A DNA stretch of 38,422 nt from an uncultured Planctomycetales bacterium. Its GTDB lineage: Bacteria; Planctomycetota; UBA1135. Below are positions 16,686-18,749 of this stretch, one piece after another (the stretch's first letter is position 1; each line of letters opens with the position of its first letter). Made by a program: the position numbers and the translations under genes. The stretch is taken from positions 1 through 38,422 of the forward strand of contig CAYMFV010000001.1 of assembly GCA_964389745.1 (NCBI GenBank), read 5' to 3'. A model generated the notes under the pieces. The model ran no database searches. It was given only the letters and a program-made list of their open reading frames with translations, and had not been told where the DNA came from.

Positions 16686-18749
16686 ATGGACCTGGGCGCC
16701 CTGCGCAACATCGGGATCGTCGCCCACATCGACGCCGGCAAGACCACGGTCACCGAGCGGTTCCTCTACTACACCGGGGTCGAGCACCGCATGGGCGAGG
16801 TCCACGAGGGCACGACGGTCATGGACTGGATGGCCGAGGAGCGGGAGCGGGGGATCACCATCACGGCCGCCGTCACCCGCTGCCCGTGGCGGGAGCACGT
16901 GGTCCAGCTCATCGACACCCCCGGGCACGTGGACTTCAGCGCCGAGGTGGCTCGCTCCCTCCGGGTCCTGGACGGAGCCGTGGTGGTGCTTTGCGCCGTC
17001 GCCGGCGTCCAGGCCCAGACCGAGACCGTCCTCCGCCAGGCCGAGCACTTCCACCTGCCCTGGCTGGCCTTCGTGAACAAGATGGACCGGGCCGGGGCCG
17101 ACTTCCTGGCGGCGGTCCGCTCCCTGCGGAAGCGCCTGGGCGCTCCGGCCGTCCCGGTCCAGCTGCCGGCCGGCAGCGGCCCGGAGCTGCAAGGGGTCCT
17201 GGACCTCCTGGAGCCGGGCCTGCTCCGCTGGCGGCCAGGCAGCGACGGCCGGGAGTACGCCCGGGAGCCCGTCCCAGAGGCCCTCTGGGAGGAGGTGGCG
17301 GCGGCCCGCCGGCGGCTGGTGGAGGCGGTGGCCGAGACCGACGAGGCCCTGCTGGACGCCTACCTGACCGCCGACGGCCTGGGGACGGCCGAGCTCCGGG
17401 CGGGCCTGCGCCGGGCGGTGGCCCGCAGGGATCTGGTCCCGGTCCTGTGCGGGGCGGCCCTGCGCAACGTCGGCATCCAGCCCCTCCTGGACGCGGTGGT
17501 GGAGTGGCTGCCGTCTCCCCTGGAGCGGCCGCCGGTCCGGGGCTGGCTGCCCGGGGACCCGGGCACCGAGGTCCTGCGCCATCCCCGGGAGGACGAGCCC
17601 TTCTGCGGCCTGGTCTTCAAGCTCCAGCACGACGCCCACGGGGTCCAGGCCTTCTGCCGGGTGTACAGCGGCCGCATCCGGGAGGGGGACCAGGTGCACA
17701 ACGCCCGGACCGGCCGGGCCGAGCGGGTGCAGCAGGTCCTCCTGGCCCACGCCGACCACCGGGAGCGCCTCCGGGAGGCCGGTCCCGGGGCGATCGTGGT
17801 CCTCACGGGCCTTCGCCAGGCGGCGACCGGCGACACCCTCCACGCCCGGGGGGCGCCCATCGCCCTGCACCCCATCGAGTTCCCGGAGCCGGTCATCCGC
17901 CAGAGCATCGAGCCCAGGAGCGTCGCCGACCGGGACCGCCTCCTGGCGGCCCTCGCCGCCCTGGACCGGGAGGACCCCACCCTCCGGGTGGAGGTGGACG
18001 AGGACTCGGGCCAGGCGGTCCTGGCCGGTCTGGGCGAGCTGCACCTGGAGGTGGCCCTGCACCGCCTGGCCCGGGACTTCCGGGTGAACGCCCGGGCGGG
18101 CCGGCCCCTGGTGGCCTACCGGGAGTCCATCCGGGAGGCCGCCGAGGCCGAGGGGCAGGCCCAGCGGCCCCTGGCCGAGGGCGGCTACCAGGTGGTCACC
18201 GCCCGGGTCCAGGTGGAGCCCGCCGACGTGGCCAGGCCGGAGCTGGAGGTGGCGGCGGACCTGGGGCTCCTGGAGCGCCCGGTCCGGGAGGCCTTCCTGG
18301 CCGAGGCCGCGAGCCTCCTGGACCGGGGCGGGGACCTCGGCTTCCCCCTGGCCCGGCTGCGGGCCACGGTCCGGGAGCTGGCCTGGCAGCCCTCGGGGGC
18401 GGCACCGGGGGCGGACCTCCTCCTGGGTGCGGTCTCCCGGGCCCTGGACCGGGCCTTCGACGGCCGGGCTCTCCTCCTGGAGCCGGTGATGGCCCTCCGG
18501 GTGGAGGTGCCCGAGGAGTTCCTGAGCGGGGTCCTGGCCGACCTCCAGGCCCGCCAGGCCGAGGTCGAGGATCTGGAGATCGCCGGGGGGCTCCGGCGGA
18601 TCCGGGCCCGGGTGCCCCTGGAGCGGATGTTCGCCTACTCCACCGACCTGCGCTCCCTGACCCAGGGCCGGGGGCAGTTCAGTCTGGAGCCCGCGGGCTA
18701 CCAGCCGGTCCCGCCGGAGCGAGCCCGGGGTCTCGGCCTGGCGGTCTAG
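16686..18749 (+). CDS. fusA: Elongation factor G family GTPase in the fusA position; divergent, with degenerate domain IV
   Basis: Internal ATG of ORF 15756..18749, 687 aa. It has [22 protein letters not shown], NKMD, a G' insert, and domains II, III and V (TGDTL, [30 protein letters not shown]). The domain IV loops QSGGRGQYGH and H-x-VDSS are replaced by [11 protein letters not shown] and [10 protein letters not shown]. Confidence 0.85.
   Translation: [687 protein letters not shown]

Follow-up and report, generated by a model that had tools for sequence, protein, structure and literature searches.

A str-operon elongation factor G with a remodelled domain IV tip in an uncultured planctomycete lineage: a probable, extremely diverged spdEFG2/mtEFG2-type recycling factor

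Introduction

Canonical elongation factor G (EF-G) inserts two loops at the tip of its domain IV, a glycine-rich loop 1 and a His/VDSSE loop 2, into the decoding centre of the ribosome, moving the tRNA-mRNA pair. In Spirochaetes, Planctomycetes and Deltaproteobacteria two further subfamilies, spdEFG1 and spdEFG2, have been defined, and genomes with both are without EFG I (Margus 2011, Atkinson 2015). In these studies spdEFG1, the sister of mtEFG1, is the translocase and is marked by a KDG insert in switch I, and spdEFG2, the sister of mtEFG2, is the recycler. The five cultured Planctomycetes in the supplementary table of Atkinson 2015 (Isosphaera, Pirellula, two Planctomyces and Rhodopirellula) all have spdEFG1 and spdEFG2 with EFG absent, and Isosphaera has EFGII in addition. 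Loss of translocation in human EF-G2mt (GFM2, RRF2mt; PDB 7L20, 7NSH) and in B. burgdorferi EF-G2 has been linked to changes in loop 1 (Koripella et al. 2021, PMC8203779), and the same paper cites work in which mutation or deletion of the tip strongly affects translocation and barely affects ribosome disassembly. In Planctopirus limnophila, a transposon-insertion study placed the str-operon EF-G (Plim_0475) in an operon that is essential throughout with the exception of L29 (PMC10632474). Here we describe an EF-G-like gene in the same operon position of an uncultured Planctomycetales bacterium of GTDB lineage UBA1135 (assembly GCA_964389745.1, contig CAYMFV010000001.1), of which positions 1 to 38,422 of the forward strand, hereafter the window, were analysed.

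The sequence-only reading of this DNA had proposed that the gene encodes a specialised paralogue of the split translocation/recycling type, with an intact GTPase and with both domain IV tip loops lost. Our analysis indicates that the protein is probably an extremely diverged spdEFG2/mtEFG2-type paralogue, a factor for recycling dependent on ribosome recycling factor (RRF), with the translocase encoded elsewhere. As such it fits a known class of EF-G copies as an extreme case, and is not a new system. The new elements are a domain IV that diverges beyond that of human EF-G2mt, the presence of such a protein in the str slot of an uncultured Planctomycetota lineage, and the conserved Tsr3-type gene paired with it.

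Results and Discussion

Architecture and the domain IV tip

The EF-G-like gene and its parts are as follows.

16686..18749, + strand: EF-G-like gene of 687 aa plus stop, lying between rpsG and rpsJ in the fusA slot; recognised by the open reading frame (ORF) and its start, Pfam, NCBIfam TIGR00484 and a full-length match to EF-G structures.
16686..17525, + strand: G domain with G' insert, residues 1-280; G1-G5 intact, with the catalytic His81 of DTPGH and a switch I without KDG insert.
17526..18110, + strand: domains II and III, residues 281-475, by Pfam.
18111..18479, + strand: domain IV, residues 476-598; fold kept in the model, sequence beyond the reach of Pfam EFG_IV (PF03764).
18162..18197, + strand: loop 1 region, residues 493-504, standing in the alignments for K/R-Q-S/T-GG-R/S-GQ-Y/F-GH.
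18372..18416, + strand: loop 2 region, residues 563-577, standing for DGS-x-H-x-VDSSE; proline/acidic-rich and about 3 residues longer.
18480..18746, + strand: domain V and C-terminus, residues 599-687, matched by Pfam EFG_C (8.6e-25).

The segment 18117-18479 that had been read as domain IV (residues 478-598) is in frame with the 687-aa ORF, and all of the GTPase motifs quoted in that reading were located: AHIDAGKTT at residues 13-21, RGITI at 55-59, DTPGH at 77-81, NKMD at 131-134 and CGAALRN from 255. For comparison we used the 120 nearest database proteins, clustered at 90% identity, which with the window protein make a set of 121; the window's own genome is absent from the protein collection searched, and the best match is 67% identical. 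Across these 121 homologues the G-motif residues, including His81, are invariant. Domains G, II, III and V are EF-G-like, with Pfam matches that range from 1e-61 to 1e-16 (GTP_EFTU 3.7e-61, EF-G_D2, EFG_III 2.5e-25 and EFG_C). The G1-G5 motifs and five domains that define the EF-G family are thus present, four of the domains by Pfam and domain IV by AlphaFold and Foldseek.

Pfam EFG_IV finds no match in the window protein at E<=0.01. End-to-end HMMER alignments with T. thermophilus and M. tuberculosis EF-G place the loop 1 segment opposite RQTGGRGQYGH, and the loop 2 segment opposite YHEVDSSEMAF, or DGSYHEVDSSEMAF in the alignments to solved EF-G structures. A careful alignment of this kind, which the sequence-only reading had named as able to overturn it, did not recover the domain IV motifs, and both are replaced. 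The length of loop 1 is canonical. An AlphaFold2 model built from the 121-sequence alignment has a mean predicted local distance difference test score (pLDDT) of 91.9 and a predicted template modelling score of 0.86, with blocks of domain IV at 82-97. The modelled domain IV has EF-G topology, with a hairpin at 486-495/501-512 that carries loop 1 at 496-500 and, on the loop 2 side, a strand at 558-568, a loop at 569-575 and a helix at 576-591. Foldseek matched the model to full-length EF-G structures at E ~1e-81, with mtEFG2 (7nsh) among the matches. As the domain IV fold is retained in the model, the loops appear to be remodelled and not deleted. The earlier claim that both tip loops are lost therefore holds for their conserved residues, which are gone, and not for the loops themselves, which the model and the loop lengths indicate are still there.

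Loss of the tip is a feature of a clade. Both motifs are missing in about 67 of the 120 nearest homologues, intermediate in 43 and canonical in 11, and this frequency means that the loss is neither chance nor a sequencing artefact. The tip-less clade has a loop 1 pattern of ERPLxEGRQxVT, and among the intermediates are proteins with ERALGGKDLYAKV and GGEWREGYSTEVAF, or with DRELGGKRHF and a retained HPVDSSE. The top matches are all from Planctomycetota metagenome-assembled genomes (MAGs) and are without a precomputed EFG_IV match. The EFG_IV bit scores form a graded series (spdEFG1 136.9, P0089 95.8, P0066 59.1, human EF-G2mt 43.9, P0112 28.9, P0021 12.3), of which the window protein, with no score, is the extreme end.

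Conservation, selection and composition

Of the five domains, domain IV is the most variable within the tip-less clade, with a mean pairwise identity of 0.32 (G 0.73, II 0.49, III 0.60, V 0.55), and among the canonical EF-Gs of the same match list it stands at 0.62, on par with the other domains. Domain IV being the fastest-evolving domain is the opposite of what would be expected of a sole translocase. It is nonetheless under purifying selection: in two pairs of close relatives the ratio of non-synonymous to synonymous substitution (dN/dS) is 0.072 and 0.097 in domain IV and 0.085 and 0.064 over the whole gene. P495, L544, G549, P574 and G581 are conserved across the clade, and the window's subclade conserves W567, P569 and E577 as well. 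The EF-G-like protein evolves much faster than its neighbours, being 55-65% identical to its counterparts in the related loci L001 and L002, for which the values are 85% for RplB and 91-96% for RpsJ.

The region 16000-19000 is an outlier in base composition, with a GC of 0.73-0.77 against 0.66-0.71 elsewhere in the window, and it is at first codon positions that the excess arises (GC1 of 0.81-0.83 against about 0.66 in neighbouring genes). The EF-G-like protein and the adjacent Tsr3-like protein are both rich in G, A, R and P and poor in F, Y, M, I, N and K. In the EF-G-like protein the fractions of these two groups of residues (GARP and FYMINK) are 0.40 and 0.08, and in EF-Tu and RpoC 0.26-0.29 and 0.22; domain IV is the most extreme, at 0.46 and 0.05. 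Horizontal transfer as a cause of the outlier was ruled out by the GC1 excess, a drift to G, A, R and P, together with synteny that is conserved in relatives, and the skew points to weak constraint on the amino acids rather than to a foreign origin. Both strands carry long open frames that overlap the gene (16671-18794 on the minus strand, 15756-18749 and 16541-20413); these are a by-product of the roughly 75% GC and not genes, the real frame being the one with high GC at third codon positions and EF-G homology.

Subfamily placement and comparison with known systems

The closest described counterpart of the window protein at the tip is human EF-G2mt, the sequence of which we checked against PDB (7nsh_BC, 100% over 710 residues). 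The two proteins share five domains, the G' insert, intact G motifs and the lack of a KDG insert. In human EF-G2mt both canonical domain IV motifs are likewise absent: its loop 1 fits the pattern [DE]R-x-L...R-x-x-VT, as in the clade, with the glycine pair disrupted, and H-x-VDSSE is missing. EFG_IV matches it weakly, with 43.9 bits where spdEFG1 reaches 137. The window protein has diverged further still, with no EFG_IV match, a proline/acidic tip and the longer loop 2, and differs also in being bacterial, in its str-operon location and Tsr3-type partner, and in an overall sequence that is nearer to bacterial EF-G. The recycling-only function of human EF-G2mt is established (PMC8203779), and that of the window protein is predicted.

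With the bacterial spdEFG2 proteins (B. burgdorferi EF-G2 and spdEFG2 of Planctomycetes) the window protein shares an altered loop 1, the alteration relative to translocating EF-Gs that marks spdEFG2/mtEFG2, a phylum in which spdEFG1 and spdEFG2 replace canonical EF-G, and a presumed partner translocase. The change in B. burgdorferi EF-G2 is a single Gly-to-Ala substitution in loop 1 (PMC8203779), in contrast to the window protein, in which both loops are rewritten. The protein itself is not an spdEFG1, since its switch I is without the three-residue KDG insertion; it also has AHIDAGKTT in place of the AHIDSGKTT of that subfamily.

Canonical EF-G (EFG I, fusA of E. coli and T. thermophilus) is the best overall match in sequence and structure, and agrees in length, domains and str slot. 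The window protein departs from it in the conserved residues missing from both decoding-centre loops and in a domain IV that is the least conserved, and by its tip loops (QSGGxGQ[YF]GH and H-x-VDSSE in EFG I) it was rejected as a canonical EFG I. EFG II, of which T. thermophilus EF-G-2 (PDB 1WDT) is an example, is also a diverged second EF-G; the match to 1wdt is weaker (E 8.4e-82), T. thermophilus EF-G2 retains both loop 1 glycines (PMC8203779), and the NCBIfam EF-G2/EFGII models score far under their cutoffs (NF009377 350.8 against 890, NF058620 359.2 against 1000), so that this identity was rejected too. Ribosomal protection proteins of the Tet(M)/Tet(O) type also resemble EF-G and show differential conservation of their domain IV loops (Atkinson 2015), but the window protein, unlike them, lies in a housekeeping operon. 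A Tet(M)/Tet(O)-type identity was ruled out by the NCBIfam tet_protect models, all of which score well below cutoff (361 against 775, 248 against 1100 for TetM/W, and 192 against 1420). The sequence-only reading had excluded a Tet(M)-type protein because of the G' insert. This argument is weak, as G' is found in all bacterial EF2-family proteins except TypA and LepA (Atkinson 2015), but its conclusion stands because of the score of 361 against a cutoff of 775.

The public names of clusters P0018/P0263, P0055, P0057 and P0063 vary between "elongation factor G", "GTP-binding protein" and TetM/TetW/TetO/TetS protection protein. These clusters belong to the same clade as the window protein, whose model scores do not support the Tet name.

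In a neighbour-joining tree, with human EF-G2mt as the sole verified spdEFG2/mtEFG2 reference, the tip-less clade has a bootstrap of 100%, and the clade plus the Planctomycetota intermediates 94-96%. We also searched GTDB genomes for the expected partner with a degenerate, GC-biased DNA pattern for D-G-[VIM]-G-A-x-M-D-x-M. At least 120 spdEFG1-type genes were found; among the matches listed, six are from Planctomycetota-labelled MAGs, and complete spdEFG1 sequences in four of the six (L017, L033, L061 and L096) have KKQTGG(S/R)GQY and H-[AD]-VDS[SD]. By tetranucleotide and neighbour-gene comparison of the spdEFG1 loci with the window, the unlabelled MAGs are Krumholzibacteriota-like or Acidobacteriota-like. 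By NCBI accession, no pair of a tip-less and an spdEFG1 gene among the matches listed lies closer than about 88,000 accessions, and the TOBG MAG CPC9 (NYSS01), which has the spdEFG1 locus L061, does not carry the tip-less P0018 (GC 53% against 66%).

Several observations weigh against placing the window protein in spdEFG2. By HMMER it matches canonical EF-G (E ~1e-170) better over the whole sequence than it does EF-G2mt (2.6e-136), and it misses the cutoff of the EF-G equivalog model TIGR00484 by only 0.6 bits (658.8 against 659.4), with the shortfall in domain IV. The node that joins the clade and the intermediates to P0089 and human EF-G2mt, to the exclusion of EFG I, has a bootstrap of 92% with domain IV and 12% without it, and could reflect convergence or long branches. 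Membership of bacterial spdEFG2 would rest on context and on resemblance to EF-G2mt, human EF-G2mt being the reference compared. Among the spdEFG1 matches listed, as distinct from complete genomes, none could be assigned to a genome or contig that also carries a member of the tip-less clade, and a protein search with the intermediate P0066, aimed at cultured relatives, returned MAGs only.

We nevertheless favour a specialised paralogue of the split type, as had been proposed, since the clade is conserved and under selection, has an EF-G2mt-like tip and no KDG insert, and belongs to a phylum whose published members carry spdEFG1 and spdEFG2. That the translocase would be encoded elsewhere follows from this phylum-level evidence and from the improbability that a sole translocase would have domain IV as its fastest-evolving domain.

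Alternative explanations

The gene could instead encode a specialised paralogue with a job other than recycling, whether stress- or condition-specific, in ribosome rescue or protection, or as an auxiliary translocase, beside a translocase and a recycler both encoded elsewhere. Remodelled domain IV loops are also a hallmark of the Tet-type protection proteins (Atkinson 2015), some cluster members are named TetM/TetW/TetO/TetS family or GTP-binding protein by NCBI, the clade-specific tip residues P495, G549, P574, G581 and W567 could read a different ligand, and the gene is tightly coupled to a Tsr3-type gene. We consider such a role unlikely. The tet_protect score (361 against 775) and those of the EF-G2/EFGII models (351-359 against 890-1000) are far too low, the core ribosomal super-operon position is kept in every relative, as for a housekeeping factor, and in Planctopirus limnophila the EF-G gene in this slot has been reported to be essential (PMC10632474). 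Published Planctomycetes, moreover, have spdEFG1 and spdEFG2 as their only EF-Gs, apart from EFGII in Isosphaera, which leaves recycling to this slot.

A second alternative, that the protein is the sole EF-G of its lineage, would have it perform translocation and recycling without the canonical domain IV loops, perhaps aided by the co-transcribed Tsr3-type enzyme as an aminocarboxypropyl (acp) transferase acting on small-subunit rRNA near the P/decoding site. The occupied fusA slot, the near-threshold equivalog score (658.8 against 659.4) and purifying selection across the whole gene would all be in keeping with this, as would the lack of a second EF-G for the clade among the spdEFG1 matches listed, in place of complete genomes. 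We regard it as very improbable, because domain IV has the lowest conservation of all the domains and shows strong GC-biased drift (GARP 0.46, FYMINK 0.05), the reverse of what a sole translocase should show; translocation is strongly impaired by tip mutations (cited in PMC8203779); and spdEFG1 is present in all surveyed Planctomycetes (Atkinson 2015) and in several Planctomycetota MAGs. A decaying or non-functional fusA copy, which the invisibility of domain IV to Pfam and the compositional outlier (GC1 0.83 against about 0.66 in neighbours) might suggest, is effectively refuted by an intact 687-codon frame, conservation of the protein in about 67 clusters (90% identity), dN/dS of 0.06-0.09 overall and 0.07-0.10 in domain IV, invariant G motifs, an AlphaFold pLDDT of 91.9 and a retained operon position.

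A model for recycling and its implications

From the observed architecture, GTPase motifs, fold, selection and synteny, together with a remodelled tip that resembles that of EF-G2mt, we infer that the protein would be active in recycling only and that the same genome would encode an spdEFG1. The intact G domain and domains II, III and V would bind the ribosomal GTPase centre as EF-G does, and the GTP-bound protein would engage the post-termination ribosome. Domain IV, with its fold kept, would then act as a rigid wedge on domain II of RRF, or possibly directly on h44, against inter-subunit bridge B2a, so that the subunits split. For such a role the glycine-rich loop 1 and the His/VDSSE loop 2 would no longer be needed, and the acidic/proline-rich tip appears not to be built for entry into the decoding centre. 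Translocation would be left to a second factor, an spdEFG1 with KDG insert and intact loops, encoded outside the window.

If this is correct, the str-operon "elongation factor G" of a whole uncultured planctomycete lineage is not the translocase. This would matter for annotation, in which the NCBI names of the clade span EF-G, TetM-family and "GTP-binding protein". It also matters for phylogeny: fusA is an often-used marker, and in this clade its rate of evolution is far above that of the ribosomal proteins. The clade would further be a natural experiment on how far the domain IV tip is dispensable once an EF-G works only with RRF, since the tip has been rewritten more thoroughly than in human EF-G2mt and is under purifying selection nonetheless.

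The Tsr3-type partner gene and the locus

The window is a ribosomal super-operon stretch with a GC of about 70%, and the genes around the EF-G-like gene are the following.

16207..16674, + strand: Tsr3-type (TDD superfamily) gene, 155 aa; PF04034 at 3.5e-4 and a profile match to archaeal Tsr3.
15272-15643, + strand: rpsL, str-operon context, from its ORF translation.
15664-16137, + strand: rpsG, str-operon context, from its ORF translation.
18948..19253, + strand: rpsJ, first gene of the S10 operon, 198 nt past the EF-G-like gene.
2332-3537: tuf, after a tRNA-Thr/Tyr/Gly/Thr cluster and ahead of secE-nusG.

The EF-G-like gene lies after rpsL-rpsG in the str operon, as is characteristic of EFG I, but with the Tsr3-type gene inserted between rpsG and itself; the stop of the Tsr3-type gene is 11 nt ahead of the EF-G-like start. 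The order rpsL-rpsG-(short ORF)-EF-G-like-rpsJ recurs in related loci (L001, L002, L003, L124, L129-L136, L137, L138 and L139). In 13 of 14 related loci there is a gene in the slot directly upstream of the EF-G-like gene, and in L125/L126 a PF04034 gene lies two genes upstream. The Tsr3-type genes of relatives are at 9520-9984 in L001, 9546-9989 in L002, 5360-5893 in L124, 2858-3310 in L125, 1025-1489 in L129, 520-981 in L137, 531-992 in L139 and 43-555 in L138.

Both the PF04034 and the NCBIfam scores of the Tsr3-type protein are under the curated cutoffs, and a single-sequence AlphaFold model was unusable (pLDDT 39), so a profile search of PDB was used instead. A profile of nine orthologues matched archaeal Tsr3 (5apg_A at 1.9e-9 and 5ap8_A at 4e-5) and had no other noteworthy match in PDB. 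D71-S-S-W74, a D-x-x-W motif, is invariant in the nine aligned orthologues, and the protein thus has the D/E-x-T/S-W motif and the Tsr3 core homology of the Tsr3/TDD proteins. Burroughs and Aravind (2014) described pc1599, a TDD family of bacteria that occurs mostly in the PVC superphylum, and do not mention a link to EF-G; the Tsr3-type gene probably belongs to this family. Its pairing with the EF-G-like gene suggests an acp-type modification of small-subunit rRNA, or of tRNA, coupled to the EF-G-like factor. A tentative idea is that the Tsr3-type enzyme and the EF-G-like protein work as co-evolving partners in ribosome recycling; we hold it to be doubtful, although likelier than the reading in which the EF-G-like protein is the sole EF-G of the lineage. 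Independently of this, the pairing is a separate and testable lead on small-subunit rRNA modification in bacteria.

The gene order of the window runs aroC, tRNA-Thr/tRNA-Tyr/tRNA-Gly/tRNA-Thr, tuf, secE, nusG, rplK, rplA, rplJ, rplL, rpoB, rpoC, rpsL, rpsG, the 155-aa ORF, the EF-G-like gene, and then rpsJ with the rest of the S10, spc and alpha operons; dnaE and an aminotransferase gene, on the minus strand, stand at the end. In the window, tuf is absent from the interval between the EF-G-like gene and rpsJ, and tRNA-Trp from that between tuf and secE (window 1652-3537). Translation and transcription genes make up a single unbroken same-strand block of about 31 kb. Between the stop of the EF-G-like gene and the start of rpsJ is a non-coding gap of 198 nt (18750-18947), in which an Rfam scan found no family at gathering score; the corresponding gap in related loci is about 130 to 330 nt, and that of the window could carry a promoter or leader of the S10 operon.

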